From the IMG/VR virus record IMGVR_UViG_3300033067_002221, positions 1 to 59,975 of that record: a stretch of DNA of 59,975 nt; one strand, given 5' to 3'. The stretch is from a virus. Its lineage: Duplodnaviria > Caudoviricetes. The notes under the pieces were generated by a model, which saw only the letters and a list, made by a program, of their open reading frames with translations, was not told where the DNA came from and made no database searches. Shown one piece after another: positions 7,244 to 59,918 of the stretch. Position numbers and translations under genes: made by a program. Numbering within the stretch: the first letter of the stretch is position 1; every line of letters starts with the position of its first letter.

Positions 7244-7702
7244 GTGGGACACCCTGCGTTCCGGACCGTAAAGCAGCGGACGGCCTACATCGCCGGCCTC
7301 ATGGAGCGTGGCGAGTGGGTGCCCTACCGCACCGCGCGCGAGCTCGCGGCCGACTGGTCGCTCGCCCTGTCGACGGTGCGGGACTACTCGGCGAACGCGT
7401 CGCACGGGCTGACGCTCGGGATGGACGCCGCGGACCTTGAGGCGGCGCGCGCTCGGAACTGGTTGCGGCTCGACGAGGTGTACGAGCTCGCGACGAAGGG
7501 CGACGTGAACGGCCGGCTGGCCCTGCGGTCGGCCGTCGCCGCGATCGAGCTGCAGTCGAAGATGGCCGGGCTGCTCGAGCCCGTCGGCGAGCAGGGCGCG
7601 CGGGCCCCCACCGAGATCGTCGTCCACTACGGCGACGTCGCCCCGCTCGAGGACGACAGCAGCGCGCCCACGCCCGAGGTGGAGCCCGAGGTCAAGCCGT
7701 GA
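7244..7702 (+). CDS. terminase small subunit (putative)
   Basis: N-terminal HTH-like segment (ARELAADWSLALSTVRDY); directly upstream of and overlapping terL; start uncertain. Confidence 0.65.
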   Translation: MGHPAFRTVKQRTAYIAGLMERGEWVPYRTARELAADWSLALSTVRDYSANASHGLTLGMDAADLEAARARNWLRLDEVYELATKGDVNGRLALRSAVAAIELQSKMAGLLEPVGEQGARAPTEIVVHYGDVAPLEDDSSAPTPEVEPEVKP

Positions 7703-18200: not shown

Positions 18201-19760
18201 GTGACCATTCCCGTCATCGGCATCCCGGCGAGCGACATCGTCCCGGGCGCGCCCTTCCAGTCGAACTTCGCCGCAGGCGTCGCGGGCCAGGGCTCTGCGC
18301 CGCTCAAGGTGCTGCTCATCGGCAACATGCTGACCGGCGGGACCGGCGTCGCGGGCACCGTCTACGGCCCCGACACCGCCGTCCCCATGAACAGCGAGGA
18401 CGACGCGGCCGCGCTCTTCGGCGCGCGCTCCGAGGCGCGGCGCATGGTGCGGTGGTTCAAGCGCGTCGCGCCGAACCTGGCGCTCTACGTCTGCCCCGCG
18501 GCGGAGTCGGCGGGCGCGCAGGCGACCACGACGATCACGTACACCGGCACGACGGCGAGCGCGGCGGGCTACGTCCGCGTGCGCATCAACCGCGCCGAGT
18601 ACGTCGACGTGCCGTTCGCGAAGGGCGACGCGATCGCCACCATCGCCACGGCCACCGACACGTACATGAAGTCGCAGGCGCACTGGCCGGTCACGAGCTC
18701 GCCGGCCGCGGGCGTCGTGACGGTCACCGCCGCGCAGAAGGGCCTCCGCGGCAACCGGATCAAGATCAGCGCGCAGGTCTTCCCCGCCGACGGGTCGACC
18801 GGCATCACGGTCTCGCCGACCACGATGACCGCGCTCGCGAGCGGCACGACGTCCGACCTTTGGACGACCGTGCTCGCGTCGATCATCGGCCGCCGCTTCT
18901 ACTGGATCGCCTCGGCCGACGACGGCGCCGGCAGCGGCCTGCTCGCGCTGCAGACGCAGCTCGACTCGGACGCGCTCCCCGCGCAGGGCAACCGCCAGTG
19001 CGTGATCGCCGCGTCGACCGACACGCTCGCGAACGGCATCACGCAGAGCACCGCGCTGAACGACCCGCGCATCGACATCGTCTCGCAGGTCGGCGGCGAC
19101 ATCGAACCGTGCTGCCTCGCGGCGGCGGCCACCGCGGCCTTCGCGCTCGGCGAGACGTCGCTCGATCCGATGCTCTGCAACTTCGACGGGTGGGGGAACG
19201 TCAACATCCCCGGCATCGGCGACACGCAGGCGCTCTGGCCGATCCCCGCGCCGATGGTCGACACGCGGCTCACGCGCACGCAGCTCAACTCGGGGCTCAC
19301 GAGCGGCCTGACGATGCTGCAGGTCGGCGACGCCGGCCGCTCGTTCATCGTCAAGCGCGTCACGACGAAGTTCCTCACGTCGTCGCAGTACGACTACCGG
19401 ATCCGCGACTCGCACAAGCGCTCGATCATGGACCGCTTCGGCGACGACACGCAGGCCGCGATGTCGTCCGCGATGGCCGGCAAGGTCATCGGCGACGCGG
19501 TCCCGGTCAACCAGCGACAGCCGAACGCGCTGGTCTTCACGACCGACGACGCGACCGCGATCGTGAAGAACGTCGTCCTCAAGTACCAGGCGAAGACCCT
19601 GCTGCAGCAGGTCGACAGCGTGACCCTCGCGCCCGGCGGCATCATCGCGCAGCGCGACTCGGGCGCGCCGACGCGCATCGCGACGCAGGTCAACCTCGTC
19701 CCCGTCGACGTGCTCGACCAGGCGCCGATCGTCGCCAACCAGCAGTCGGCCTCGCTCTGA
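18201..19760 (+). CDS. contractile tail sheath protein (Mu gpL-like)
   Basis: KVLLIG, AAALFGARSEARRM, VTVTAAQKGLRGN, GLTMLQV, IVKRVTT motifs. Confidence 0.9.
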   Translation: MTIPVIGIPASDIVPGAPFQSNFAAGVAGQGSAPLKVLLIGNMLTGGTGVAGTVYGPDTAVPMNSEDDAAALFGARSEARRMVRWFKRVAPNLALYVCPAAESAGAQATTTITYTGTTASAAGYVRVRINRAEYVDVPFAKGDAIATIATATDTYMKSQAHWPVTSSPAAGVVTVTAAQKGLRGNRIKISAQVFPADGSTGITVSPTTMTALASGTTSDLWTTVLASIIGRRFYWIASADDGAGSGLLALQTQLDSDALPAQGNRQCVIAASTDTLANGITQSTALNDPRIDIVSQVGGDIEPCCLAAAATAAFALGETSLDPMLCNFDGWGNVNIPGIGDTQALWPIPAPMVDTRLTRTQLNSGLTSGLTMLQVGDAGRSFIVKRVTTKFLTSSQYDYRIRDSHKRSIMDRFGDDTQAAMSSAMAGKVIGDAVPVNQRQPNALVFTTDDATAIVKNVVLKYQAKTLLQQVDSVTLAPGGIIAQRDSGAPTRIATQVNLVPVDVLDQAPIVANQQSASL

Positions 19761-39624: not shown

Positions 39625-40562
39625 GACGGCCACCCGATGACGAACCGGCCGCCCACCGGCCCAATCGGCCAGCCGCCCATCGCGAAGATCGCCAGCAGCG
39701 GCGCCCACGGATCGGCCTTGTCGGGCAGGCCGACGATGTGCGCGGCGGACCTGGCGGCGGACCTGGCGGCGGACCTGGCGGCGGACCTGGCGGCGGACTC
39801 GGCGGCGGACCTGGCGGCGGACCAGGCGGCGGACTCGGCGGCGGACCTGGCGGCGGACCAGGCGGCGGACCAGGCGGCGGACCTGGCGGCGGACCTGGCG
39901 GCGGACCTGGCGGCGGACCAGGCGGCGGACTCGGCGGCGGACTCGGCGGCGGACTCGGCGGCGGACCAGGCGGCGGACTCGGCGGCGGACCAGGCGGCGG
40001 ACAGCCGCATGATCTCGATCTCCGTCGGCACATTCTTCGCGCTGAACTGCGCGAGCGCGGCGACGTGCTCTGCGACGAGCGCGCGCAGCTTGTCGAGATC
40101 GGGTGGACCCGACGGCTTGAACCACGGGTACTTCGGCAACTCGCGCAGCAGCGAGACGACGCGCCAGCCCTGCGGCCCGAACGCCTCATCGATCGGCACC
40201 TCGCGCACGACGCGGAGCCGACGCACGCGCATTTTGGGCTCGTCGCTCTGGCGCCACAGCACGTTCGACTCGCGCACGGCGACCTCGAAATACGCGCGGT
40301 CGAGCGGGTTGCCCGGCTCGTCGCCGCGGTTGCCGCCGAACTGGTTGTGGCGGAGGCACGCGTCGAGCGTCTGCATCACGTGCAGCCCCGCGGCGCACTG
40401 GCCCTCCGAGGCCGGCGCGAACTGGCCCGGAGCGAGTCGCACCACCTCGCCGACGGCGTAGCGCGTGGTGCCCGTGCGGCAGTCGGTGCCGTCGCGGCGG
40501 GTGGTCTTGTACGCGGTGATCAGTCTGCTCGGCATCTTCGTCCCCTTGCTGCTCTCGCTCAC
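39621..40562 (-). CDS. hypothetical protein with SAA[W/E/R] tetrapeptide repeats
   Basis: N-terminal AYK...YAVGE...CAAGLH domain followed by 22 repeats. Confidence 0.75.
   Translation of the reverse strand: MSESSKGTKMPSRLITAYKTTRRDGTDCRTGTTRYAVGEVVRLAPGQFAPASEGQCAAGLHVMQTLDACLRHNQFGGNRGDEPGNPLDRAYFEVAVRESNVLWRQSDEPKMRVRRLRVVREVPIDEAFGPQGWRVVSLLRELPKYPWFKPSGPPDLDKLRALVAEHVAALAQFSAKNVPTEIEIMRLSAAWSAAESAAWSAAESAAESAAESAAWSAARSAARSAARSAAWSAAWSAARSAAESAAWSAARSAAESAARSAARSAARSAARSAAHIVGLPDKADPWAPLLAIFAMGGWPIGPVGGRFVIGWPS
39739..40002 (-). repeat. 12-bp tandem repeat x22 (TCCGCCGCC + AGG/TGG/GAG)
   Basis: Read directly from the sequence. Confidence 0.95.
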
Positions 40563-41131: not shown

Positions 41132-41331
41132 CACGGCACCGCCCGCATCTCGCCGAAGCACGCGCAGCACGGCAGCGCCTCGCCGCACGTCGGGCACACG
41201 AAGCGTGCGACGCCGCGGCGGCAGAACGAGCACGGCGCGCCGTACGTGTTGAGCCGCCGCCCCTCGCAGACGCGGCACTTCGGCCGCGGGCGACGCGCGT
41301 GCGGCATCGCGAGCTGGATCGGGGCGGTCAC
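41131..41331 (-). CDS. small Cys-rich Zn-finger protein, copy 1
   Basis: CRVC, CSFC, CPTC, CCAC. Confidence 0.6.
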   Translation of the reverse strand: MTAPIQLAMPHARRPRPKCRVCEGRRLNTYGAPCSFCRRGVARFVCPTCGEALPCCACFGEMRAVP

Positions 41332-41433
41332 GACTGCAGCTCCGCGTGTCCCGGCTCGATGGCGTCCGGCGCGTCGACCCACACGCGATCCGACGACATC
41401 GAGAACGCGCCCATCTCGCTGCCGAGCAGCGTC
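41164..41433. repeat. 270-bp direct repeat, copy 1
   Basis: Identical by eye to 42588-42857 (offset 1424). Confidence 0.95.
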
Positions 41434-42335
41434 CGCGGCTCCGGGAACTCGCGCACGCGCAGGCTCTTCGGCCACTCCAGCGGATCTCCGCCCTTCGGAT
41501 GCTTCTGCGGGTGCGTCTCTCCGTCGTCTTCGGGGTACGGGCCCATCTGCTTCATGAAGACGGGCGTCTTCGCGCGTCGGCACTGCTCGATGAGCGACTC
41601 CGCCCACGCAACGTCGAGCGCGCGCGCTTTCGGGCCCGACTCCCCGCCGACGATCACCCAGTTCACGACGTCGGGATGCGGCGGCTCGGTGAACCCCGAG
41701 TACAGGAAGATCGAGAGGTCGACGGGTCCGAGGAGCGGCTCCGCGCTCACGAACTTCACGGCCGCCGGCGTCTCGACGAGGTGCGGGAGGCGCTCGTTCG
41801 CGCGCGCCTGGTCCTCGACGCTGACGCCGACCCAGATCCACGGCGCCGGCGTCGTCGCTGGGTTCGAGATGCCGACGCCCATGAGCGCCGGCCGCTTCGC
41901 TCGAATCGCGTCAGCTTCGCGCAGCACGCGCTCGTAGAGCCTCGGATCGCTCAAGTACTTCCGCGCGCGCACCGCCCGCTTCGTGAGCACCTGGAAGGTG
42001 TGCCGAGGCGCGAGCAGCATCACCGCCCACACGCGATCGATCACCTCGTCCGGCACGCCCTCGTAGAAGAGGTCGCCCATGTCGGCGACGAAGATCCGCG
42101 ACGGATCGCGCAGCCGGAGCGGCATCTCGAGCTCGGCCTCCCACAGCCGCGAGAGGCCCGTCCAGCGTGGCCCGCCCTTCGAGAACGTCGCGAGGCCTTC
42201 GTACTTCGGCGTGTGCCGCAGGCGCGTCGCCGCGAGCCGCTCGGCGTAGCACCCCTCGCATCCCGGCGAGGCGCGCCGGCAGCCGTTCACGATCGGCCAC
42301 GAGACGTCCGTCCACTCGATGCTCGTCTTACCCAC
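41328..42335 (-). CDS. DUF5131 / phage Gp37Gp68 family protein
   Basis: TSIEWTD, GC...SPGCEGCYAE, IFVADMGDLF, HTFQVLTKR, SAEPLLGP, WVIVGGESG, FMKQMG. Confidence 0.92.
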   Translation of the reverse strand: MGKTSIEWTDVSWPIVNGCRRASPGCEGCYAERLAATRLRHTPKYEGLATFSKGGPRWTGLSRLWEAELEMPLRLRDPSRIFVADMGDLFYEGVPDEVIDRVWAVMLLAPRHTFQVLTKRAVRARKYLSDPRLYERVLREADAIRAKRPALMGVGISNPATTPAPWIWVGVSVEDQARANERLPHLVETPAAVKFVSAEPLLGPVDLSIFLYSGFTEPPHPDVVNWVIVGGESGPKARALDVAWAESLIEQCRRAKTPVFMKQMGPYPEDDGETHPQKHPKGGDPLEWPKSLRVREFPEPRTLLGSEMGAFSMSSDRVWVDAPDAIEPGHAELQS

Positions 42336-42549
42336 GTTGCACCTCCCGCCGCGCCCCACGCTTCACCGCGCGCCGCTCCGCCGTGATCGCGAGGCGAATC
42401 GCTCTCTCGATCGAATCCTCGTGATCGCGCCGCTTCTCGTTCTCGGTCCTCGCGCCGCGCATGCGCACGCGCTCCGGATCTTCTGCGTACGCGTCGAGGT
42501 CACGAATCTCACGCAGGCATGCCCGCGCCCGCTGCTCGATGGTCTTCAT
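42328..42549 (-). CDS. hypothetical protein
   Basis: MKTIEQRARACL; coupled. Confidence 0.55.
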   Translation of the reverse strand: MKTIEQRARACLREIRDLDAYAEDPERVRMRGARTENEKRRDHEDSIERAIRLAITAERRAVKRGARREVQRG

Positions 42550-42755
42550 GTCGCATCCGCCTTTCCCCTGAACTCCCCGAAACAGCTGCAGCACGGCAGC
42601 GCCTCGCCGCACGTCGGGCACACGAAGCGTGCGACGCCGCGGCGGCAGAACGAGCACGGCGCGCCGTACGTGTTGAGCCGCCGCCCCTCGCAGACGCGGC
42701 ACTTCGGCCGCGGGCGACGCGCGTGCGGCATCGCGAGCTGGATCGGGGCGGTCAC
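42546..42755 (-). CDS. small Cys-rich Zn-finger protein, copy 2
   Basis: Same as 41131-41331 except the last residues. Confidence 0.6.
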   Translation of the reverse strand: MTAPIQLAMPHARRPRPKCRVCEGRRLNTYGAPCSFCRRGVARFVCPTCGEALPCCSCFGEFRGKADAT

Positions 42756-42857
42756 GACTGCAGCTCCGCGTGTCCCGGCTCGATGGCGTCCGGCGCGTCG
42801 ACCCACACGCGATCCGACGACATCGAGAACGCGCCCATCTCGCTGCCGAGCAGCGTC
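42588..42857. repeat. 270-bp direct repeat, copy 2
   Basis: Identical by eye to 41164-41433. Confidence 0.95.
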
Positions 42858-44227
42858 ACGAGCATCTTCTCGGCGATGGCCTTCGCGGCGCCGACTGGAA
42901 CGGCGTTCCCGATGCGCGATCTCATGTCGCTCGTGCGGTGGCCCGCGAGCGCGAGCGGCGCGCCGTTCAGCGTTGCCGGCAGCCCCTGCAGCGCCGCGAG
43001 GTCGAGCAGCGTGAGCGGCCGGTGCCAGGTCGCGTCGCGCGCGACGAGCACCGGCGGGCGGTCGAGCGGGCGCGCGGCGCTCCAGTCGATCGCCTCGTGC
43101 ACGCGCGGATCGGCAACGGCCGCGGGCGCGTTGTCGATCTTGTGGTGCCCCGTGATCGTCTTCGCCGGCTCGTCCCACGCGAGCACCCCGTAGGCCCCCG
43201 CGCGCGGCTCGCACGTCAGCCGCGGATCCGCGACGGCGTACGCCCCCTGCCCGACGGCGCTCCCACCGGCGACCGTCGGCGAGGCCTGGTCCCAGCGGAG
43301 CACGCCGTAGCCGCGGTCGTAGGCGGTCTTCACGCGCGGGTCCGCGACGCCGAAGACGCCGTTGGTGCCCGAGCCCGCGATCGTCGCGACCGGCTCGTCC
43401 CACGCGTTGATCTTGTACCTGCCGAACACCTCGCGGCGCGCCTGGCCGTCAGCGAGCACGCCCTCAAGGTCTCGCCAGTCGCCGCCTGCGGGGATGAGCG
43501 CGAGCCGGAGCCAGTTCGTCGGCGTGAGCTTCGGCAGCCGGTGTAGCGGTCCGCCCTCCGCGGCCTCCGGCAGCGGCAGGCCGCCGAGGACCTCGCCGCA
43601 GCCGCGGACGCGCTTCTTCGGGGGCTGGTAGAGCAGGTGCGGCAGCGCCCGCGCGCGCCTCGCGACGAGCAGGAAGCGGCTCCGGCGCTGCGCCAGACCG
43701 CCGATCTCGCCGCAGTCGTGCGTGCTCTCGTGCAGCACGTAGCCCGCGCCGCGCAGGAGCTTCCGCACGCGCGCGAGGAGCGCGGCCCCGCGGTGCGCGA
43801 TCCCCTCGACGTTCTCGAGCAGCAGCAGCCGCGGCGGGTCGTCGGGCCACGTCGCGAGCACGAGCTCGAGCCACACGACGACGAGCTCGTTCAGCGCCTG
43901 GTACTTCGGCGACCGCGAGACGCGCGCAGGGAGCAGCCGGCTGTAGCCCTGGCACGGCGGGCTGCCGAAGATGACGTCGGGCGCGCGCTCGCCCATCAGC
44001 TCGCGGAGCATCCCCGGCGTCACCTCGCGGACGTCGGCGCAGAGCGCGGGCGACCGGGTGAGCGTCTCGAAGTCGGCGCACGAGAGCGGATCGAGGTCGA
44101 TCCCGCCGACGCTCTCGAAGCGCGCGCCCCGGCCGAGGAGCGAGATCGCGGCGTCGAGGAACCCGAGCGCGCCGGCGCCGAGGCCGCAGAAGAAAAAGCC
44201 GGCGCGGTAGGTGGTCGAGGGGTTCAC
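42752..44227 (-). CDS. C5 cytosine DNA methyltransferase
   Basis: FFCGLGAG (I), GSPPCQGYS (IV), LENV (VI), QRRSR (VIII), IGNAVP (X). Confidence 0.93.
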   Translation of the reverse strand: MNPSTTYRAGFFFCGLGAGALGFLDAAISLLGRGARFESVGGIDLDPLSCADFETLTRSPALCADVREVTPGMLRELMGERAPDVIFGSPPCQGYSRLLPARVSRSPKYQALNELVVVWLELVLATWPDDPPRLLLLENVEGIAHRGAALLARVRKLLRGAGYVLHESTHDCGEIGGLAQRRSRFLLVARRARALPHLLYQPPKKRVRGCGEVLGGLPLPEAAEGGPLHRLPKLTPTNWLRLALIPAGGDWRDLEGVLADGQARREVFGRYKINAWDEPVATIAGSGTNGVFGVADPRVKTAYDRGYGVLRWDQASPTVAGGSAVGQGAYAVADPRLTCEPRAGAYGVLAWDEPAKTITGHHKIDNAPAAVADPRVHEAIDWSAARPLDRPPVLVARDATWHRPLTLLDLAALQGLPATLNGAPLALAGHRTSDMRSRIGNAVPVGAAKAIAEKMLVTLLGSEMGAFSMSSDRVWVDAPDAIEPGHAELQS

Positions 44228-44454
44228 GCCCGCCTCGTGTAGGGGCACGACTCCTGGCCGCAGATCGGGCACAGGAAGAGCCGCCCGCTCGAGGTCTCGG
44301 TCGCCTCGCGCTGCATCTCCTCGATGCCCTCGTGCGCGGCCGCGCGCAGGCGTGCCGCGAAGTCACTGAAGTCGGGCACGGTGACGGTGTCGAAGCGGAG
44401 CGCGCCGCCCGTGCCGTCGTTGGGGCCGCCGCCCTGTCGCTGTCGCTGGCTCAT
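44224..44454 (-). CDS. hypothetical protein
   Basis: RBS GGAGG; C-terminal CPICG. Confidence 0.5.
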   Translation of the reverse strand: MSQRQRQGGGPNDGTGGALRFDTVTVPDFSDFAARLRAAAHEGIEEMQREATETSSGRLFLCPICGQESCPYTRRA

Positions 44455-44455
44455 C

Positions 44456-46084
44456 TCAGGCCTCCGTCCGTTCCACGCGCTCGACGAAGAGCGCGCCGTG
44501 CTTGTGCGACTCGACGAACTCGCGCACCGCCTCGCGGTGGTCGACGCTCTCCTGCTCCGCGAGCGTTGCGAGCACCGCGCCGGAGAGGTCGTCGCGCGTG
44601 ATCCCGAACTCGTCGCTCGGCTCGTGGACGTCACGCAGCATCGCGGCGGTCGCCGCGCGCTCGACGATGCCGGCGATCATCGCGCCGTTCGTCATGTGGC
44701 CGAGCGTGATCGGGTGCTTCTCCGTCTTCGTGACGACGCGGAACATCGCGGCCGCGTCGCCGAAGAGCTCGCGCGCCGCGTGCCCGGCGAGCGCCGGAAT
44801 CGGCTCGCGCGTCGGGCGCCCACGCAGCGCGAGAGCGAAGATCCGCACGGCGTCGGCCTTCCCGGGCCGTCCGATCCGCACCTTGCGATCGATGCGCCCG
44901 TCTCGGACGACGGCCGGATCAAGCGCGTCGGGGCGGTTCGTCGCGAGCAGAACGAGCGCGCCGGACTCCTCGAGGCCGTCCATTTCGGCGAGGAACTGCG
45001 GGACGATCGTGCGCTCCATCCCCGATCCGATCGAGGAGCCGCGCGCGCCGAGGATCGCCTCGGCCTCGTCGATGAACACGACGGCGGGGTGGCCGTGCTG
45101 CTTCGCGTACGCGCGCGTCGACGCGAAGATCTCGCGAATCTTCCCCTCGGCCGCGCCGACCCACTGGCTCAGGATCTCGGGGCCCTTGATGTAGAGGAAG
45201 CCGGCGGAGGCGGTCTGCCCGTGGACGCGCGCGAGCGCCGTCGCCGTCGCCTTTGCGATCAGCGTCTTGCCGCAGCCCGGGGGGCCGTAGAGGAGCACGC
45301 CGCGGACCGGCCGCTTGCCGTAGCGGGTGAACACGTCGCGGTGCTTGTGCGGGAGCTCGATCGCCTCGACCAGCGCGGCCTTCGCCTCGTCGAGGCCGCC
45401 GATGTCCTCCCACTGGACCGGCGCCGTGCGCGCGAACGCGAACTCGCTCTGCGCGCGCGGAAGCACCCGAAGCACGACGGACGCCGATGCGTCGACGACG
45501 ACGCGATCGCCGCCCTCGACCTCGGCCTCGCCGCGCGCGATCGCGCGCACCGAGGCGTTGTGATCTATCTCGACAACGTCGCCCGCGACGCGGCGCACGA
45601 CGCAGACCTCGCCGACGGAAGCCGGGTTGCGATCGACCTCGGCGATCTGCCCCGTCTTCGCGAGCTTGACCTGCATCCCCGGCTTGAGGCCGCCGATGTC
45701 GTTGACCTCGATCGGCACGCCGCCGACGAGGACCGTCGCCTTCCCGCCGCCCACGCGCAGCACGAGGGCGAGCTGCTTCGGCGCGTCGGTGATCGACTTC
45801 AGCTGCGCCTGCAGCGTGTTGATGATCTGCTCGGCCTCCGCGAGCATCCGGCGCGCATCGCCGGAAGGCTGCGGATAGCCCGGCGGGTAGCCCAGCATCT
45901 CGCGATCACGGTCGCGACTGCGGCTGATGACGACGTCGTCGAGCCGGAGCATCACCGGGCCGAAAGGAACGTTGAAAGGGTTTCTCGACATCGGCTGCAC
46001 CTTCCTCGCTCGTTGCTTCGATTTCGGTTCGGTTTTCTGATTTCGTTCGCGCCAACGGGCGTCGAAGCGCTCTCGGGACTTCAC
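44456..46084 (-). CDS. ARC/Mpa-like (proteasome-type) AAA+ ATPase; alternative start 45991
   Basis: Coiled coil, two OB-like segments, WEDIGGL, GVLLYGPPGCGKTLIAKA, IKGPEILSQWVG, VFIDEAE, TIVPQFLAEMDG, TNRPDALDPAVVRDGRID. Confidence 0.88.
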   Translation of the reverse strand: MKSRERFDARWRERNQKTEPKSKQRARKVQPMSRNPFNVPFGPVMLRLDDVVISRSRDRDREMLGYPPGYPQPSGDARRMLAEAEQIINTLQAQLKSITDAPKQLALVLRVGGGKATVLVGGVPIEVNDIGGLKPGMQVKLAKTGQIAEVDRNPASVGEVCVVRRVAGDVVEIDHNASVRAIARGEAEVEGGDRVVVDASASVVLRVLPRAQSEFAFARTAPVQWEDIGGLDEAKAALVEAIELPHKHRDVFTRYGKRPVRGVLLYGPPGCGKTLIAKATATALARVHGQTASAGFLYIKGPEILSQWVGAAEGKIREIFASTRAYAKQHGHPAVVFIDEAEAILGARGSSIGSGMERTIVPQFLAEMDGLEESGALVLLATNRPDALDPAVVRDGRIDRKVRIGRPGKADAVRIFALALRGRPTREPIPALAGHAARELFGDAAAMFRVVTKTEKHPITLGHMTNGAMIAGIVERAATAAMLRDVHEPSDEFGITRDDLSGAVLATLAEQESVDHREAVREFVESHKHGALFVERVERTEA

Positions 46085-46845
46085 TCGTCGTCTCCCGCGG
46101 CGCGCGCGCGCATGTCCTCGGCCGGCGCCTCGGCGGCGCGCCGCGCCTGCAGCACCTCGAAGCGCCGCATGAACTCGTCGCGAGCGCGCTCGGCGCACCA
46201 TGCCTCGATCCGCCTCGTGAGCGGCTTCGCCCCCGGCAGCCCGTCCGCGTGCGCGCGCAGGTCGCGCTTCTCGGTCGCGAGCAGACGCGCGTCGGCGAGG
46301 CGGACGCTCGGCGGCATCGCCAGCGGCAGGCCGAACCGCTCCGCGATGACGCGCTCGAGCTGCCGCTCGGCGGCGCGGTAGCTCGCGAGCGCGGGCGCGC
46401 GCTTCACCGGCGACGGCACGTCGACGAGGTACGCCTCCGTCGCGTCGTGGAGCAGGCCCCAGAGCGCGTCGTCGGGGTGGCAGGCGTGGGAGACGAGCAC
46501 CGAGTGCTGCGCGACCGAGTAGTGCGCGCAGGCCACGTGCCCCGCGAAGCGGCAGAGGCGCGCGAGCGCGTGCGCGATGTCCTCGATCCGCACCTCCTCG
46601 GCGCGGGGGTCGAGCGGCCAGAAGCGGACGCCCGAGTGCGTGAGGATCCAGCCCGCCGGATCGCGCGCGGGGGCGCCGTCGATGCGCTCCTCGTCGAGCG
46701 CGCCGCGCGCCTGCAGCTCGCCCTCGTAGGCGGTGAGGACCTCGCCGACGAGGTGGCCGGGGACGAGCCCCGCGGGGAAGCCCGACGGCGCGGTCGCGCG
46801 CGCGCGGATCTCGGCGCGGCGCCAGGCGGGGATCGTGGGCTTCAC
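46081..46845 (-). CDS. HD-domain phosphohydrolase (YfbR/YfdR-like)
   Basis: IEDIAHALARLCRFAGH, YSVAQHS, LLHDATEAY. Confidence 0.9.
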   Translation of the reverse strand: MKPTIPAWRRAEIRARATAPSGFPAGLVPGHLVGEVLTAYEGELQARGALDEERIDGAPARDPAGWILTHSGVRFWPLDPRAEEVRIEDIAHALARLCRFAGHVACAHYSVAQHSVLVSHACHPDDALWGLLHDATEAYLVDVPSPVKRAPALASYRAAERQLERVIAERFGLPLAMPPSVRLADARLLATEKRDLRAHADGLPGAKPLTRRIEAWCAERARDEFMRRFEVLQARRAAEAPAEDMRARAAGDDE

Positions 46846-47527: not shown

Positions 47528-47782
47528 TCAGAACGGCAGCTCCTCGCGCTCATCGAGAGCGATCGTCTCGACGTCGAGCGGCGACTTCGCGAACGCGATC
47601 GCCTTCACGACGAAGAAGCGCCGGCCGCGGTGCTGCCGTGCGAGGCGCTGCGCCTCTTCGAGCGCCAGCTCGCGCGTGACGTGCTGCTTGTTCGGCGTGA
47701 AGTCGCCCCACGCCGCCCCGTTGCGCGCGCCCGGCTCGCACCAGACGAGGAAGAAGCAGTCGCCTTCGCGGATCGGGGCCAT
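47528..47782 (-). CDS. hypothetical protein
   Basis: FFLVW...H.TRELALEEAQRLARQHRGRRFFV; ends EELPF. Confidence 0.7.
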   Translation of the reverse strand: MAPIREGDCFFLVWCEPGARNGAAWGDFTPNKQHVTRELALEEAQRLARQHRGRRFFVVKAIAFAKSPLDVETIALDEREELPF

Positions 47783-49077
47783 CAGGCGGCCTCGCCTTCG
47801 CGCTTCGACGGAAGCTGCGGCGCGACCGGCTCGCCCTTGCGGTGCGCCTTGAAGGTCTCGCTCGTGACCTTCTCGATCGCGCCCGCCTCGTGCAGCTTCG
47901 CGAGCACGCGGCGCATCGCGGCGGACTTCTGCCGCCGGATCCCCTGCTCCTCGTGCAGCGCGCCGATCGCGTCCTCGATCGCGCTCTTGCTGATCTTCGC
48001 CGCCGCCTGCGTGCGCTCGGGCCCGAGCTCGTCGCGGAGCACCTCGTACGCGGCGCCGTAGCTGATCTCGTCCTTCTGCTCGAGGACGGGGCCCCACTCG
48101 TTCCCGTTGCCGAGGTCGATCGGGCCGGTCGCCTTCACGTGCGCTTGCAGCGCCGCGCGCATCCGCCGGCCGAGCGCGTCGATCATCGGCAGCATCACCG
48201 CTGCCTTCTGCGCGAGCTCGGGCGCGAGCGGGCCGACTTCGAACGGCGCAGATCCCTCGGCGAGCAGCGCGCGCAGGCGCGACGTCTTCGCGGGGCAGGT
48301 CGCCTCGGAGGGGCAGTAGGTGCAGTGCGGGCCCTCGACGAGCTCGAGCGCCTCGCCCGCGGCGAGCGCGGCGCGCTGGGCCTCGACGCGGGCGGCGCGC
48401 GCTCGGATCCGCGCTTCGATGCGGTCGAGCGCCGCGGCCCGGAGCAGGCTCGTCACGTCCCAGGTGCCGTTGCCCGGGCCCGGGAACACCGCCGCGACGC
48501 GCACCGCCTCGGCGCCCGTGAAGCGCGCCCAGAGGAGCGCGAGCGAGAGCAGCTGCTCGTTCCGGTCGGCCCCGGTGACGTTCGCCGCGTCGCCGCTCTT
48601 GTAGTCGACGACGACGAGCACCGAGCCCACCGGGCAACGCGGCTGCGCGGGCTCGGAGAGGTCGAGCGGCTCGGGCTCCGACCAGATCACGTCGGCCTGG
48701 CCGGGGAGCAGCGCGCCCGCGGGGAGCTCGGGGTAGTCGCCGCGGCCGCCGCGCGTGCGCACGACGCTCCCGTCGACGAGGAGGCAGAGCCCGACCTCGA
48801 CAAGCGCGCCCTCGGGCGGGCACCACGTGAAGGAGCGCAGGCGCGCGCCCACGATCGCGGTCGCCCGCTCGTCGAGGCCCCACCGCTGCGCGATGTCGGG
48901 CCACTGCACGAGCGACGCCTCGAGGCTGTCGGTCCCGCGCAGCGCGAGGGCCTCGTGCAGCGCGCTTCCCTCGTCGGCGGCCTCGTTCTCCGACTCGATG
49001 GTCGGGAGCACCGCGGAGCCCGTGCACTTCGAGAGGAGCGGCTGCCGCGAGGCCGAGCCCAGGATCGCGGCGCTCAC
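47782..49077 (-). CDS. PD-(D/E)XK exonuclease (RecB/Cas4-like, RecE analogue)
   Basis: EGSALHE, GQADVI, VVDYKSG, NEQL, GPHCTYCP...CP; next to recT. Confidence 0.85.
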   Translation of the reverse strand: MSAAILGSASRQPLLSKCTGSAVLPTIESENEAADEGSALHEALALRGTDSLEASLVQWPDIAQRWGLDERATAIVGARLRSFTWCPPEGALVEVGLCLLVDGSVVRTRGGRGDYPELPAGALLPGQADVIWSEPEPLDLSEPAQPRCPVGSVLVVVDYKSGDAANVTGADRNEQLLSLALLWARFTGAEAVRVAAVFPGPGNGTWDVTSLLRAAALDRIEARIRARAARVEAQRAALAAGEALELVEGPHCTYCPSEATCPAKTSRLRALLAEGSAPFEVGPLAPELAQKAAVMLPMIDALGRRMRAALQAHVKATGPIDLGNGNEWGPVLEQKDEISYGAAYEVLRDELGPERTQAAAKISKSAIEDAIGALHEEQGIRRQKSAAMRRVLAKLHEAGAIEKVTSETFKAHRKGEPVAPQLPSKREGEAA

Positions 49078-50069
49078 AGCTTCGTCTCCTGCGCGCCCGC
49101 GGCGGCGATCAGCTCGTCGGCGCGCGCCTTGATCGCGTCGCGCGCGGCCTGGTACTCGGCGTCGGAAAGCGCCTTCACGCGCCCGCCGGCGCTCGCATCG
49201 CTTTCGTCCTCCCAGACGAGCAGCCCGTCGACCGTCGGGCACGCCTTGATCTCGGCGATGATCGCCGACGCCTCGGCGCCGAGCGCGCGCTCGGGCACCG
49301 GCACGTGCGCCGAGACGACGTCCACGTCGACGATCGCGCGGCCGAGGCGATCGAGATCGGCGGGCTTGTCGTCGTCGAGCTCGAGCGTCTTCGCCATCTC
49401 GGTCGACTGCGGCAGCCACTTCCACCCGCGGCGGAAAACGGTCTTGCGCGCCATCTCGTCGTAGTGGTCCTTCCACGGACCCGAGCGCCCGGCCTTCGAG
49501 CCGTTGCGGACGGCGTCGATCTCGTGCCGGTACATCACCTCGCGCTGGACGCTGCCGTCCTTCAGGTGCGCGATCATGTACGCGGCGATCAGCGGGCCCG
49601 GGTCGGTCGGTCCGACCGCCTTCCCCTGCTCGTCGAACTTCGGCACGAACGGCTCGTGATGGATCCGGGGGTTGTCGCCGCGCGCGTAGGTGAAGACGTC
49701 GCGCGCGTGCACGACGGCGACGTCGACGGACGCGATCTCGCCGCTGCGGCGCGCGAGCGCGAGCAGCCCCTTGAACCCGATCACGAGCTGGCAGTCGGTG
49801 CCATAGGGGATCAGGTAGGCGTGACCGAGCGGGCTGTTCGGCTCGAGCCCGAGCTCCGAGCACGCGGCGAGCGCCATGATCAGCGTCTCGGGCTTGCAGT
49901 CCGCGAGCTTCGGCGTGCGCGTGAGCGACGCGAGCGCGATCTTGAGGAAGCGGTCGACCGTCAGGTGCTTCGGGAGCACCGCCTCGAAGCTGTTCTTGCG
50001 CGCCAGGATCATGTCGGCGACCGACCGCGCGCCACCACGCTGCACCATCTGTCCGTTCCCGTTGGCCAT
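49074..50069 (-). CDS. recT: RecT single-strand annealing protein
   Basis: LPKHLTVDRF, LGLEPNSPLGHAYLIPY, IGFKGLLALARRSG, PWKDHYDEMARKTV. Confidence 0.95.
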   Translation of the reverse strand: MANGNGQMVQRGGARSVADMILARKNSFEAVLPKHLTVDRFLKIALASLTRTPKLADCKPETLIMALAACSELGLEPNSPLGHAYLIPYGTDCQLVIGFKGLLALARRSGEIASVDVAVVHARDVFTYARGDNPRIHHEPFVPKFDEQGKAVGPTDPGPLIAAYMIAHLKDGSVQREVMYRHEIDAVRNGSKAGRSGPWKDHYDEMARKTVFRRGWKWLPQSTEMAKTLELDDDKPADLDRLGRAIVDVDVVSAHVPVPERALGAEASAIIAEIKACPTVDGLLVWEDESDASAGGRVKALSDAEYQAARDAIKARADELIAAAGAQETKL

Positions 50070-50124: not shown

Positions 50125-51675
50125 TCACTGAGCCGCGGCCGCCTCCTCCTCGAACTCGAGCCCCTCGATCGCGAGCGCGCCGTCGTCGACGACCGTCGCG
50201 AAGACCTGCCAGCCGCCCGCGCACGCCTCGCGCAGGAAGTCGTCACGCCGGCTCGGCGCGAGGTGCTCGAGGTGGTCGACGATGAGGATCGGCGCCTTGT
50301 TCAGGCGCTTCGCGATCGAGACCGCGAGGCGCAGCTGCTGCCCCGACGAGAGCGAGTCGATCGCGATCCCGTCCACGCGGATCGCCTCGCCCTCGATCTC
50401 GAGGCCCTCGATCCCGCCGATCTCGGCCATGAGCGCGCGCGGCGCTTCCGTCGCGAGCGCCTTCACGATCGCGTCGAGCCGATCGGCCTCGGCGTTCGCG
50501 GCCTTCGTCTTCTCGGCCGCCGCGACGCGCGCGGCGTTCGCGGCCCGCGCGGCCTCGGCGCGCTCGGCGGCGGCGAGCAGCTCGCGCGCGCGGTCGATCT
50601 CGGCGTCCGCCCGTGCGATCTCGTCCGTCGTGGGCGCGGTCGGGGCGGCGGCGGCGAGCGTCGCCTCGAGCTCGTCGGCCTGGTGCCGGAGAGCGGAAGC
50701 CTCCTTCCGCGCCTCCTCGATCTTGGCGAGCTGCTGCGAGGCCGCGAAGAGGCGCTGCTCGCCGCGCGTGACGGCCGCGCGCGCTTCCTCGACCAGCTGC
50801 AGCAGCTCCGCGAGCTTCGCCCGCGCCCGCGCGACTTCGGACCGCTCCGAGTCGACGGCGACGCCCGCGGCGGTCCACTCGTTCTCGCTGCGCGCGTTGA
50901 GCGCGGCGTCCGCGCGGAGCTTCGCGATCCGATCGCGCGTCCCCGCCGTGCGAGCCTCGTGCGCCTTCGCGGCATCGATCGCCGCGCGCAGGGTCGACGC
51001 GTGACGCTCTGCGATCTGCTGCTGCTCGAAGGCTTCGGCGGGCGAGATCGTATCGGCGGAGACGCCGACGGCCGCGGACGTCGCCTCGCGCGAGAGGCGC
51101 TCGAGCTCCGCGTTCGCGGTCTTCGCAGCCGCGTTCGCCGCGGTCCGGCGCTCGTACGCGACCTTGTGCAGGCGCTTCACGACCTCGAGGCCGTGGCCGG
51201 AGCAGTCGAAGCTCTCGAGCGACGGGACCCACTGGCGCAGGCGCTCGAGCGTCACGGTGCAGGGCACCGCCTCCTGCAGCATCCGCACGCGGTCGGCCGG
51301 CTTCGCGCCGATGAACGAGATCACGTCGAACGCCGACAGCCCGAGGCGCTCCTGCAGCCACGTCTGCGGCTTCATGATCTTCGCGTCGCCGTTGACGACG
51401 GTGGGCTGGCCCACGCCCTTCGCGGTGATCGAGCGCTTCACCGTCGTTCCGTCGTCGAAGCCGACGAGCAGCGTCGTCTTCTCCGCGCCGCGGCGGATGA
51501 CTTCGACGCCGAGGTCGGTGCCGCGCAGCGCGGCGGTGATCGCGTCGAGGTGCGAGGTCTTGCCCGCGCCCTCGTCGCCCGAGAGCTTCAGGCCGTTGCG
51601 GGGCACGTCGATCCGCGACTCGGTGATGCCCCTGAAATTCTCGATCTCGATGCGGCAGATGCGACGGATGGGCAT
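50125..51675 (-). CDS. SMC/Rad50-like ABC ATPase
   Basis: IEIENFRGI, Walker A GDEGAGKT, long coiled coil, LSSGQ signature, ILIVDHLEHL. Confidence 0.88.
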   Translation of the reverse strand: MPIRRICRIEIENFRGITESRIDVPRNGLKLSGDEGAGKTSHLDAITAALRGTDLGVEVIRRGAEKTTLLVGFDDGTTVKRSITAKGVGQPTVVNGDAKIMKPQTWLQERLGLSAFDVISFIGAKPADRVRMLQEAVPCTVTLERLRQWVPSLESFDCSGHGLEVVKRLHKVAYERRTAANAAAKTANAELERLSREATSAAVGVSADTISPAEAFEQQQIAERHASTLRAAIDAAKAHEARTAGTRDRIAKLRADAALNARSENEWTAAGVAVDSERSEVARARAKLAELLQLVEEARAAVTRGEQRLFAASQQLAKIEEARKEASALRHQADELEATLAAAAPTAPTTDEIARADAEIDRARELLAAAERAEAARAANAARVAAAEKTKAANAEADRLDAIVKALATEAPRALMAEIGGIEGLEIEGEAIRVDGIAIDSLSSGQQLRLAVSIAKRLNKAPILIVDHLEHLAPSRRDDFLREACAGGWQVFATVVDDGALAIEGLEFEEEAAAAQ

Positions 51676-57406: not shown

Positions 57407-58494
57407 GCTGGGCTCGGTTCGACGACGAAGCGGGAGATCACCCGAAGGTCGCGATGGTCTCCGACGAGGCCGGATGGCTCTGGTTCCGGGCGATCCTCTG
57501 GTCGCGGAAGCACAAGACGAGCGGGTTCGTCCCCAGCGGCGCCCTGCGCGGCCTGACCAAGGCTCGGCGCCCCAACGTGCTCGCGAAGGAGCTCGTCAAC
57601 GCGATCCCTCCGGGGTTCAAAGTTGGGCTCTTCGAACCGCACGAGCACGGGTTCGTCATTCACGACTTTGAGGAGTTCGGCCCGCCTGCTCGTGAGGACC
57701 CGGAAGGCACCGTCACCGCGCCGTCATCCCGGAGCGCGGCAGCGAAAAAGGCCGCAGAAGCACGCTGGTCGACCAAGCGCGACGCATCGCCGACGCATGC
57801 CGAATCGCATCCGAACGCATCGGCTGACGCATCGACATCGCATCCGCCGACGCATGCCGACGCATCGCCGACGCATGCCGAATCGCATCCACAAAATGCG
57901 ATTCCCTCGCGTGCGCGCGCAGACACGCCCGCGTCTGCGCCTGCGTCTCCCGATCCCGATCCCGTAGAAGACACACTCTCCGCGCCGCATGAATCGCATC
58001 GCGCCAAGACCGCAGGCCCGAGCGCGGATCGCATCGCCGTCGTCCTCGACGAGCTCGAGGTCGGGCTCGACCTGTGGCCGCCGAGGAACGTCGCCGCCGA
58101 TGCCCTGAGCGCGTGCGCCACGCGCATCGCCCGCGTGCTCGATCGCGAGCAGGTCGAGGACGAGGTCTCGGTGCGCGACGCGGTCAGCTACGCACGCTCG
58201 TACCTCGGTCGCTTCCCGAGCGCGTCGCCGGCGCAGCTGCTTGCGGAGACCGAACGCAAGGTCGGCTACATCCTGAAAGACGACCGGCCCGCGCGGCGCG
58301 TAGAACGCGACCGACGGCGCGCCGACGCCGTCCGGCCGGCCGACGACGGCAGGACGCTCGAGGAACGCGAAGCCGCTCGTGCTGCCGAAGCCGAACGCCG
58401 TCGCAAGGCCGACAAGCGCACGCCCGAGCAGCGCCGCGCCGAGCAGGACGCCTACGAAGAGCAGCAGCGTCGCGAAGCGCAGGGGGCCGCGTGA
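57403..58494 (+). CDS. replication initiator protein (lambda O-like position)
   Basis: MSWARFDD...DHPKV...LW...W...TSGFVP...FVIHDF N-terminus; internal repeats; upstream of dnaB. Confidence 0.7.
   Translation: MSWARFDDEAGDHPKVAMVSDEAGWLWFRAILWSRKHKTSGFVPSGALRGLTKARRPNVLAKELVNAIPPGFKVGLFEPHEHGFVIHDFEEFGPPAREDPEGTVTAPSSRSAAAKKAAEARWSTKRDASPTHAESHPNASADASTSHPPTHADASPTHAESHPQNAIPSRARADTPASAPASPDPDPVEDTLSAPHESHRAKTAGPSADRIAVVLDELEVGLDLWPPRNVAADALSACATRIARVLDREQVEDEVSVRDAVSYARSYLGRFPSASPAQLLAETERKVGYILKDDRPARRVERDRRRADAVRPADDGRTLEEREAARAAEAERRRKADKRTPEQRRAEQDAYEEQQRREAQGAA
57781..57904 (+). repeat. iteron-like repeats, candidate replication origin
   Basis: 32-bp direct repeat 57781-57812 and 57859-57890, many CGCAT units, inverted ATGCGATTC at 57896. 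Confidence 0.65.
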
Positions 58495-59918
58495 ACGCGC
58501 TGGCCAAGCAGCAGCCCGGCGGCCAGAAGTGGAAGCAGATCGTGCAGGTCATCGACCTCGGCGGCCGCGTGCCCCCGCACGACCTCGGCGCCGAGGCCGC
58601 CGTGCTCGCGAGCATGCTTGCGGACGGTCGCAAGGTCGACCTCGTCGCCGACGCGCTCAAGCCCGAGCACTTCTACTCGGACGCGAATCGTCGCGTGTAC
58701 GAGGCCGCGCTCGCCGTGCGCGCTCGCCGCGCGCCGGTCGACCTGAACACGGTCGCCGCGTGGCTCAAGGATCGCGAGTGGCTAGAGGCCATCGGCGGCG
58801 TGAGCTACCTCGCGAAGCTGATCGACTCGACGCCGGCCGTCGCCCACGTCGAGGAGTACGCGCGAATCATCGTCTCGAAGGCGCAGGTCCGGACGCTCAT
58901 CGAGACGTGCCAGCTCGCCGCCGCTGAGGGCTTCGGCGACATCGGCGACCCTGACGAGTGGCTCTCGAGCGTCGAGTCGCGCGTGCACACGGCGACGCGC
59001 GTCGTGCGCGACGAGGACGCCGTCGAGATGCGCGACCTGGTCGCCGCCGAGGAGCGCCGGCTGGATGCCATCGAGCGCGGGGAGCTCAAGCCGGAGGGCG
59101 TCCCGTTCGGCTTCGCCGAGCTCGATCGCGTGACGGGCGGCATGCGGCCGAAGGAGGTCACCGTCATCGCAGGTCGCCCCGGCATGGGCAAGACGAGCCT
59201 CGCGACGGACATCGCCCGGCGCGTCGCCGCGACCCCGATCGACGGCGTGCAGCAGGGCGTCCTGTTCATCAGCATCGAGATGCCGCGCGAGTCGCTGACG
59301 CGGAAGATGGCCGCGCAGCGCGCGCTCGTGAACGTGAAGAAGATCATCAAGGGCGAGCTGAGCGACCACGAGCGCGACCTCGTGCGCGCCGCTCACCTGC
59401 ACCTGCAGGCCCTTCCGATCATCGTCGACGACAACCCGGTCGTCTCGCCGATGCGCCTGCGCGCGCGCATCCGTCGCCTGCAGTCGAAGTTCGATCGGCC
59501 GGGCGTGCGCAAGCTCGTGCTCGTCGTCGTCGACTACATCCAGCGGGTCCGGCCCGACGAGAAGTGCCAGACGCGCGAGCAGGAAGTCGCGCGCGTAGCG
59601 ACCGGCTTCGCGGAGATCGCGAAGGATACCGGCGTGCACATGATCGAGCTCGCGCAGCTCAATCGCCTCGTCGAGCAGCGTGCGGCGAAGGATGCGCTGC
59701 CGAAGCTCTCCGACCTGCGCGAGTCCGGCCAGATCGAGCAGGACGCGCACAACATCATCTTCGTGCACCGCGCCGAGTACTACCTGCCGAAGGACGCCAT
59801 CCCCGCCGACGTGCGCGGCAAGGCGACCCTGCTGCTCGCGAAGCAGCGCGAAGGCGAAGCCGGATGCGAGGTCACCCTCGGCTTCCGCGGCTTCTGCACG
59901 GGCTTTCACGACGTCTGA
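58491..59918 (+). CDS. dnaB: replicative DNA helicase
   Basis: PPHDLGAEAAVL, AGRPGMGKT, SIEM, VVDYIQ, AQLNR, LSDLRESGQIEQDA, KQREG. Confidence 0.97.
   Translation: MNALAKQQPGGQKWKQIVQVIDLGGRVPPHDLGAEAAVLASMLADGRKVDLVADALKPEHFYSDANRRVYEAALAVRARRAPVDLNTVAAWLKDREWLEAIGGVSYLAKLIDSTPAVAHVEEYARIIVSKAQVRTLIETCQLAAAEGFGDIGDPDEWLSSVESRVHTATRVVRDEDAVEMRDLVAAEERRLDAIERGELKPEGVPFGFAELDRVTGGMRPKEVTVIAGRPGMGKTSLATDIARRVAATPIDGVQQGVLFISIEMPRESLTRKMAAQRALVNVKKIIKGELSDHERDLVRAAHLHLQALPIIVDDNPVVSPMRLRARIRRLQSKFDRPGVRKLVLVVVDYIQRVRPDEKCQTREQEVARVATGFAEIAKDTGVHMIELAQLNRLVEQRAAKDALPKLSDLRESGQIEQDAHNIIFVHRAEYYLPKDAIPADVRGKATLLLAKQREGEAGCEVTLGFRGFCTGFHDV

Follow-up and report, generated by a model that had tools for sequence, protein, structure and literature searches.

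Mpa and Pup together form the main known bacterial counterpart of ubiquitin–proteasome targeting and are treated as an actinobacterial speciality. According to PMC8755798, the Pup helix (residues 21–51) lies antiparallel on the coiled coil of Mpa, the disordered Pup N-terminus threads into the pore, aromatic–hydrophobic–Gly (Ar-Hb-Gly) pore loops pull, and the GQYL sequence of Mpa docks the ring on the 20S proteasome. Here, the entire IMG/VR virus record IMGVR_UViG_3300033067_002221, a single linear contig of 59,975 bp (the window), was analysed, with the focus on a minus-strand gene for an Mpa-like AAA+ ATPase and on the gene for a 76-residue, Cys-tailed mini-protein that directly follows it. 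The two proteins may constitute a so far undescribed protein-unfolding module, and a literature search that covered few subscription journals returned no description of Mpa-like ATPases with Cys-tailed mini-proteins from phages or from bacteria of the candidate phyla radiation (CPR).

The phage ATPase resembles Mpa/ARC (TIGR03689; PDB 5kwa, 7pxd) in its N-terminal coiled-coil helix, Pro hinge and tandem OB barrels, in its single AAA module of the classic clade with an Ar-Hb-Gly pore loop, and in a C-terminal domain that aligns as far as Mpa residue 597. It differs in scoring below the family cut-off, in falling into a separate clade and in lacking the GQYL tail; furthermore, no pafA, dop or prcAB lies near it or elsewhere in the phage, and its partner is a Cys-tailed mini-protein, not Pup. 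The mini-protein family is comparable to Pup (PF05639) in that its members are small, combine a single acidic amphipathic helix with a basic N-terminus rich in Gly, and adjoin an Mpa-like ATPase, but they end in CxC, CC or CxxCx4C where Pup ends in GGQ/GGE for isopeptide ligation, and no ligase or deamidase gene accompanies them. PAN and Rpt1–6 share the order of coiled coil, OB and AAA parts and the pore-loop translocase; with a single OB domain and an HbYX motif at the C-terminus (PMC8755798), they contrast with the phage protein, which has two OB barrels and no HbYX. A further comparison is offered by the ‘proteasome-associated ATPase’ of the Brevundimonas phages vB_BpoS-Strzyga and vB_BpoS-Polewnik (alphaproteobacterial host), which is 37.5% identical over residues 221–523. 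There, however, only the AAA and C-terminal parts match, the N-terminal ∼150 residues differ, with no coiled coil or OB domain recognised in them by eye, and the downstream gene encodes a 117-residue protein without a Cys tail. The N-terminal part of the vB_BpoS-Strzyga ATPase (L256, ON529867) contains a CGDPNCMEC motif.

Sequence, fold and family placement of the ATPase

On the minus strand, the ATPase reading frame spans 44456–46201, with its stop codon counted, and offers two start codons, GTG 46084, which yields 542 residues (P0001), and ATG 45991, which yields 511 residues (P0002) and is the start used in the source gene call, with a GAGGAAGG ribosome-binding site. GTG 46084 shares 4 nt with the end of the upstream HD gene, and the RWRE[KR]N motif of the N-terminal extension that it adds aligns with the N-termini of P0003 (64% identical) and P0047 (42%). 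For both reasons GTG 46084 is probably the true start, in agreement with the extent of the gene in the initial annotation, although residues are numbered throughout on the 511-residue form. The GC content at third codon positions (GC3) of 0.89, a match to the generic Pfam AAA family (E = 6.8e-34, the sole Pfam family) and a match to TIGR03689 (Mpa/ARC; E = 3.6e-88) together argue that the open reading frame (ORF) did not arise by chance. The motifs quoted when the gene was first annotated, GVLLYGPPGCGKTLIAKA (residues 231–248), FLYIKGPEIL (265–274), ERTIVPQFLAEMDG (326–339), NGAMIAGIVERA (435–446) and the terminal VERTEA (506–511), were all located in this form.

Of the NCBIfam families, TIGR03689 is the best match, with 296.5 bits over profile positions 22–485 of 512. 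The score does not reach the equivalog cut-off of 504.75, in comparison with 704 and 711 bits for the true Mpa proteins of loci L065 and L064; members of the clade to which the window ATPase belongs (the second clade, see below) score 280–337 bits, and a DPANN member 401. The other candidate families score lower: the CDC48 model reaches 199 bits against a cut-off of 802, with one module only and a lone AAA stretch in Pfam; the PAN models reach 158–170 bits against cut-offs of 500, with the match confined to the AAA part; and the FtsH model reaches 144.5 bits against 600, again in the AAA part only. Pfam detects neither a peptidase nor any other non-AAA domain in the protein. The earlier proposal that the protein stands closer to Mpa/ARC than to PAN, Cdc48 or FtsH is therefore borne out, both by the bit scores and because only Mpa matches over the full length.

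Four specific identities were rejected. The single AAA module and the low score rule out Cdc48/p97/VAT; the absence of a peptidase domain in Pfam and the low score rule out FtsH; two OB barrels, no penultimate Tyr and scores below cut-off rule out PAN/Rpt; and an Mpa orthologue or equivalog is ruled out by the score below cut-off and by the separate clade.

An AlphaFold2 model built on 43 relatives (mean predicted local distance difference test score, pLDDT, of 87.6) is disordered over residues 1–35 and then predicts a long helix, which leads into DAPKQ, followed by two five-stranded OB barrels (pLDDT ∼90). The Pro at the helix end is conserved in the alignment of the relatives (A1). The model fits the coiled coil with a Pro hinge and the two OB segments that had been read from the letters. 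In searches of PDB sequences, the N-terminal 207 residues gave a weak match only, to the second-OB part of the Mpa chain 5kwa (E = 0.13), and the C-terminal 114 residues gave no meaningful match. In Foldseek, Mycobacterium tuberculosis Mpa takes ranks 1–10 as well as the listed ranks 16, 17 and 22, with Rpt subunits next; the best Mpa match has E = 4.5e-37 and TM-scores of 0.71/0.76. The structural alignment (VIA-align) with Mpa 5kwa_A gives Z = 29.5 and a root-mean-square deviation of 3.9 over 415 residues, pairing model residues 70–509 with Mpa 97–597, and so spans the region in which a β-grasp domain would be expected, up to model residue 509. PAN aligns with Z = 25.8 over 257 residues, and PAN and p97 together give Z ∼25 over ∼245–260 residues, in each case in the AAA module only; a match that takes in the OB domains and the C-terminal domain along with the AAA module is given by Mpa chains alone. 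In the model, the ATPase has the whole Mpa/ARC body plan.

The relationship to true Mpa was assessed in a FastTree tree with local supports (136 non-redundant ATPase rows, 488 columns), for which four CDC48/CdvC-like proteins served as the outgroup; PAN and FtsH were compared by hidden Markov model (HMM) and fold, outside the tree. The window ATPase falls into a clade of 99 rows (support 98) that holds all CPR, Bacteroidales and viral members, and within it into a subclade of 24 rows (support 95). A separate clade of 33 rows (support 95) brings together proteins of the true Mpa type (13 rows), nearly all of which (12) have Pup-ligase genes nearby, and proteins of archaea (20 rows), 11 of them with a ThiF/E1-like protein encoded in their vicinity. 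On this tree, true Mpa has a large, uncharacterised sister clade, of which the window ATPase is a member, and the tandem OB domains expected of the family are present in the model. Mpa/ARC thus stands as the best family, as the initial annotation had it, whereas membership of Mpa proper does not. Taken together, the protein is very probably an Mpa-type AAA+ unfoldase from a non-proteasomal sister clade.

Relatives that are 40–50% identical occur in CPR/Patescibacteria (Saccharibacteria, Parcubacteria), in metagenome-assembled genomes of Bacteroidales, in a few of proteobacteria and on 58 IMG/VR contigs; DPANN archaeal relatives are more distant (∼29–39% identical). Many carry the JGI label ‘proteasome-associated ATPase’. 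As had been noted, the phage protein has no 20S-docking tail: it ends in VERTEA, with neither GQYL nor a penultimate Tyr. A penultimate Tyr or Phe is present in only three of 170 non-redundant relatives, one of which is L064, a true Mpa that ends in GHYL, and the missing docking tail is, on the sequences compared, the rule across the clade and not a peculiarity of the phage. No peptidase gene is a conserved neighbour of the ATPase in either the 78 cellular or the 51 viral loci.

The catalytic residues are retained. Sensor-1 N352 and the Arg fingers R363 and R366 are present. Across the 43 relatives of alignment A1, no substitution occurs in Walker A or Walker B, at sensor-1, at either Arg finger or at the pore-loop Gly, whereas the pore-loop W and V do vary. 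Judged by these residues, the ATPase looks like a working translocase with an aromatic–hydrophobic–Gly pore loop.

Several loci of the relatives have further features. In DPANN loci L050, L051, L053, L057, L058 and L060 a ThiF/E1-like protein (Pfam ThiF, E = 2.5e-76) is encoded near the ATPase, as it is in L017, L046, L076 and L077, and the DPANN loci also hold conserved proteins of ∼143, 632 and 380 residues without known family near the ATPase; the ThiF-linked DPANN loci may represent a ubiquitin-like conjugation cassette. In L021–L047 (Bacteroidales and some CPR), the ATPase lies directly downstream of an ABC ATPase with its permease, a TelA-family protein and an OmpA-domain protein, in conserved order. 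The ATPase ORFs of L132, L077, L079, L219 and L220 encode 785–829 residues, compared with ∼500 in relatives, and in L113 and L132 the ATPase match spans ∼2.3 kb of the locus; inteins or large insertions may account for the oversized ORFs.

The Cys-tailed mini-protein and its likeness to Pup

The ATG of the mini-gene lies 2 nt past the ATPase stop, and its GGAGG ribosome-binding site is inside the last codons of the ATPase. The gene order is HD phosphatase, ATPase, 76-residue protein and C5 methyltransferase, and the genes overlap or abut, including an overlap, read from the DNA, of the GTG start of the methyltransferase with the stop of the mini-gene; the four genes are therefore taken to form one translationally coupled operon. 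The mini-gene is a real gene by several lines of sequence evidence. Its GC content by codon position (0.66, 0.58 and 0.94) follows the coding pattern of the phage genome, it is called in the source annotation (P0396), and two orthologues, both of 76 residues and 79% and 68% identical, keep the N-terminal MSQRQRQGGGP, the central helix and the tail LCPIC..ESCP[YF]TRRA. The longest contig listed for the 68% orthologue (P0401) and for the closest ATPase relative (P0003) is 17,514 bp in both cases, from which we infer that P0401 and P0003 share one contig. The protein consists of a Gly-rich N-terminus, one helix and the C-terminal CxxCx4C tail LCPICGQESCPYTRRA. The ESM Atlas offered no helpful lead on its identity, as all feature scores shown are 0.83 or lower, and the Atlas model has a pLDDT of 0.48; because of the low pLDDT, the mini-protein is predicted to be disordered.

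To place the pair in a wider context, ORFs downstream of the ATPase were counted in those second-clade loci that extend at least 300 nt downstream, with a pattern that specifies a Cys-tailed ORF of 35–135 residues. Such an ORF follows the ATPase in 51 of the 124 loci (25/50 viral, 17/47 genome and 8/26 metagenome loci, together with the window), although a few of these matches may be due to chance. The ORF that comes after the ATPase in viral loci encodes ∼60–100 residues; its product starts with a basic, Gly-rich segment, contains a motif resembling E-V-P-E-V-D-D-x-L-x-x-I-D-x-A-L and ends in a CGC, CC or CxC tail. The tail type of the window protein, CxxCx4C[PG][YGW], recurs in L090, L121, L005 and L014, all of which belong to the 24-row subclade of the window ATPase; in the sequences compared, tail type tracks ATPase subclade. 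Searched against 1.84 billion proteins, a profile of 41 mini-proteins retrieved 256 representative clusters (E ≤ 1e-3), and the top 150 representatives are all 56–89 residues long, with 128 CxC tails, 14 CC tails, six other Cys patterns and two without any.

In 22 of the 51 viral loci, the next gene encodes a DUF1360-like protein of ∼125 residues, one member of which matches the Pfam family with E = 2.6e-6. A CPYCxSHW motif is conserved in these proteins, and their hydrophobic stretches make them putative membrane proteins. CPYC is an active-site motif of glutaredoxins. Among 170 non-redundant loci, 52 have a DUF1360-like gene in the vicinity of the ATPase, and in 42 of these a Cys-tailed ORF is present as well. 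The three-gene form with the DUF1360-like protein is the commoner one, and the window phage has the two-gene form. The module of ATPase, CxC-tailed mini-protein and DUF1360-like protein was seen in L085–L136 (viral) and in L004–L019, L048 and L069 (CPR).

The likeness to Pup was assessed against four genuine Pups of actinobacterial loci, each encoded between two genes of the Pup-ligase family. The profile of the 41 mini-proteins matches these Pups with a probability of 87.8% (E = 3.3e-6) in 25 columns over the DELLDEIDxVL helix, and the 150 representatives do so over Pup's DELLDEID helix with a probability of 93.6% (E = 2.2e-7) and a score of 37.7, compared with 16.4 for reversed Pup and 11.9 for the best of 50 column shuffles. 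The window-type proteins are connected to the CxC-tail family with a probability of 84.8% (E = 6.6e-6) and a score of 30.1, against 11.2 for the reversed control. The mini-protein is therefore described here as Pup-like in layout and helix, and its sequence does not qualify it as a member of the Pup family. In the entire 59,975-bp record, no match was found to the proteasome subunit family PF00227 or to the Pup-ligase family PF03136 (pafA/dop), and the Pfam Pup model PF05639 has no match in the phage genome at E ≤ 10. The statement that no prcA/B, pafA or dop is visible in the window consequently holds, whereas the companion statement that no pup is visible has to be qualified by the Pup-like mini-gene, even though the Pfam Pup model does not match it.

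Proposed mode of action and competing explanations

The most likely explanation, to which our analysis gives about an even chance, is an adaptor-guided unfoldase that works without a protease, with the 76-residue protein as the adaptor. The ATPase would form a hexameric unfoldase that operates without a proteolytic chamber. The helix of the mini-protein would lie on the ATPase coiled coil, as that of Pup does on Mpa, its Gly-rich, disordered N-terminus would enter the ATPase pore, and the cargo would be attached to the CxxCx4C Cys knuckle by a shared metal or a disulfide, a link that would take the place of the isopeptide bond made by PafA, such that neither ligase nor protease would be needed. 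Once infection has begun, the module probably serves to remodel or remove some protein of the host or of the phage. Host or defence complexes, the targets suggested in the initial annotation, are putative. The stand-alone unfoldase that had first been envisaged is probably not what the phage encodes, given the conserved, coupled, Cys-tailed mini-protein with its Pup-like helix. A more general proposal, possible if doubtful, is that phages and CPR bacteria have a ligase-free, proteasome-free counterpart of Pup–Mpa, in which the unfoldase recognises the helix and the cargo is engaged via the Cys motif (metal or disulfide); the three-gene form would use the DUF1360-like CPYC membrane protein as cargo or anchor, and the two-gene form of the phage would have a self-contained CxxCx4C knuckle. 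The locus points to a wider sister family of tail-less, Mpa-like motors in phages, CPR and Bacteroidales, many of them with a Cys-ended, Pup-like mini-protein. If the proposal is true, a Pup-type degron can operate without ligase or protease, the module represents a new class of phage tool for host remodelling or anti-defence, and the family bears on the origin of the Pup system.

A number of observations weigh against an adaptor role for the mini-protein. Of the 124 related loci, 73 yielded no Cys-tailed ORF to the pattern, and 18 of the 24 rows of the window's subclade have no Cys-tail label (though inspection shows the window-type tail in two of them, L090 and L121), which makes the partner dispensable or replaceable. 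Not one of the top 150 representatives ends in GGQ/GGE, and the DUF1360-like partner is absent from the window (six frames, HMM of 22 viral members, best E = 1.1). Compared directly with Pup, the four window-type mini-proteins alone give a score of 10.5 (E = 0.22), which is no match, so that their link to Pup runs only via the CxC-tail family; the Pfam Pup model matches two of the 41 family members (best E = 0.058) and leaves the window protein unmatched; and the similarity covers ∼26 columns of acidic amphipathic helix, a kind of sequence in which convergence can occur. The predicted complex of two copies of ATPase residues 36–190 with the mini-protein lends the adaptor role weak support, with an interface score (ipSAE) of 0.41, against 0.02 for the best control, a partner pLDDT of at least 57 and at least 66% of contacts agreeing between runs. 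It is a weak pass: when the tool was calibrated, 58 of 80 solved complexes passed the mark, as did 2 of 110 mismatched pairs, and ipSAE values of 0.60 or lower belonged to only seven of the 80 solved complexes and to both of the passing mismatches. The pass may also reflect memory of, or likeness to, solved Mpa–Pup complexes. Binding of a metal or formation of a disulfide by the tail is pure conjecture. Much of this would equally suit an ATPase that serves as a general unfoldase or disaggregase, unaided or helped by host factors only, and an unrelated zinc-knuckle protein, for example a small regulator, whose gene simply happens to lie in the operon; zinc-ribbon knuckles commonly read CPxCG, and the missing Cys-tailed ORFs, the absence of significant Pup likeness in the window-type protein alone and the marginal complex prediction all favour it. 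We nevertheless regard that explanation as somewhat unlikely, because a Cys-tailed mini-ORF occupies the same position in the 51 loci, in viral contigs and bacterial genomes alike, tail type follows ATPase subclade, the mini-gene starts immediately past the ATPase stop, and the profiles link it to the CxC-tail family and to the Mpa-binding helix of Pup with controls scoring far lower.

The remaining explanations concern the target and the biological role of the ATPase. It is unlikely that the cassette is a phage-carried defence or superinfection-exclusion module and not a tool for host takeover. The cassette is accessory, since a kin phage lacks it: G001 (locus L255; 60,042 bp, CheckV completeness 100%, large terminase TerL 70% identical) has no match to the ATPase and keeps the HD gene (80% nucleotide identity), which is followed by proteins of 210 and 381 residues instead of the cassette. 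A methyltransferase comes directly after the cassette in the window and, just beyond, a DUF5131 protein that matches the PADLOC candidates PDC-M41B (E = 2.2e-56) and PDC-M30B, which also speaks for defence. PADLOC matches to the ATPase itself, however, are only generic AAA (IetA, TRIP13; at most 71 bits), the mini-protein has no PADLOC match, and the proposal concerns the biological role and is compatible with the same adaptor-guided mechanism. The ATPase could also feed a host peptidase chamber (the actinobacterial 20S, ClpP or HslV) by a non-canonical contact and so redirect host proteolysis. The GC content of the phage is compatible with actinobacterial hosts, among others, and the protein has the body plan of a proteasomal ATPase, including the C-terminal domain that touches the 20S in Mpa (PMC8755798). 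This idea is quite unlikely in view of the terminal TEA, without GQYL or a penultimate aromatic residue, the near-absence of such a residue in the relatives and the lack of any peptidase gene conserved beside the ATPase. Moreover, no Pup–proteasome system is known from CPR, from Bacteroidales or from the host lineage of the Brevundimonas phages, and much of the clade is found in the first two, which are not known to have proteasomes either. The same consideration bears on the dominant-negative inhibitor that was proposed at the outset, a mimic that would poison the host Mpa ring or soak up pupylated proteins, as it would need an actinobacterial host with Mpa. An Mpa architecture without the docking tail is what such a mimic should have, but a passive decoy has no need of the intact and conserved ATPase and pore-loop residues, the structure-based identity to M. 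tuberculosis Mpa is only 27–32%, the ATPase lies in a clade separate from Mpa, and its relatives occur in lineages that are not known to have Pup; we consider it very improbable.

Genomic setting of the cassette

The record has a CheckV completeness of 100% and a GC content of 72%, and its genes (Table 1) identify it as a tailed phage with a tail sheath. No tRNA genes were found in the window, and searches by DNA, portal, TerL and sheath returned no close isolated phage; the best TerL match in the isolate search is an uncultured virus (40.7% identical). The ATPase cassette lies on the minus strand within the replication and recombination arm, where two small genes without known identity are situated between the PD-(D/E)XK exonuclease and the HD gene. 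None of the 30 largest neighbour-gene clusters of the 51 viral loci includes the window; as its other neighbours are not common to those loci, the context beyond the mini-gene is uninformative.

Table 1. Positions of the ATPase cassette, its parts and other assigned genes in the 59,975-bp window; residues refer to the 511-residue form of the ATPase
Feature	Position	Strand	Basis or remark
Large terminase	7699–9048		PHROG match
Portal	9920–11680		PHROG match
Major head protein	13769–14905		PHROG match
Tail sheath	18201–19760		PHROG match
DUF5131 protein (Gp37/Gp68-type)	41328–42359		Beyond methyltransferase
C5 cytosine DNA methyltransferase	42752–44227	minus	Pfam DNA_methylase and PHROG matches
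76-aa Cys-tailed mini-protein	44224–44454	minus	Directly downstream of ATPase
Mpa-like AAA+ ATPase	44456–46084	minus	ORF; stop codon 44456–44458
ATPase, C-terminal domain ending VERTEA	44459–44611	minus	Model; GQYL and HbYX both absent
ATPase, AAA module	44612–45424	minus	Pfam AAA and invariant alignment columns
ATPase, Walker B VVFIDEAE (residues 304–311)	45059–45082	minus	
ATPase, pore loop W-V-G (residues 277–279)	within 45155–45166 (residues 276–279)	minus	
ATPase, Walker A GPPGCGKT (residues 236–243)	45263–45286	minus	
ATPase, second OB barrel (residues 128–177)	45461–45610	minus	Five strands in AlphaFold2 model
ATPase, first OB barrel (residues 73–119)	45635–45775	minus	Five strands in AlphaFold2 model
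ATPase, coiled-coil helix (residues 44–69)	45785–45862	minus	AlphaFold2 model; followed by DAPKQ with conserved Pro
ATPase, basic N-terminal extension (31 aa, motif RWRERNQ)	45992–46084	minus	Aligns with homologue N-termini
HD-type deoxynucleoside monophosphate phosphatase	46081–46845	minus	phrog_318, E = 1e-61; stop overlaps ATPase GTG start
PD-(D/E)XK exonuclease	47782–49077		Replication/recombination arm
RecT	49074–50069		Replication/recombination arm
SbcC-like ATPase	50125–51675		Replication/recombination arm
DnaB-like helicase	58074–59918		PHROG match

Minor features of the region were also recorded. In locus L185, an Mpa-like ATPase gene is immediately followed by one whose sequence, read by eye, looks like DUF5131. 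In the window, a 12-nt tandem repeat of ∼30 units occupies 39682–40050 and sits in long overlapping ORFs of both strands, none of which has a family match; one frame encodes four-residue AADL/AADS/AADQ repeats. The DUF5131 gene is flanked by a direct repeat of 292 nt (41142–41433 and 42566–42857, 97% identical, copies 1424 nt apart), and the copies include the 3′ ends of the methyltransferase and DUF5131 ORFs, so that the last 33 residues of the two are identical. The repeat pair looks like a scar of duplication or cassette insertion.

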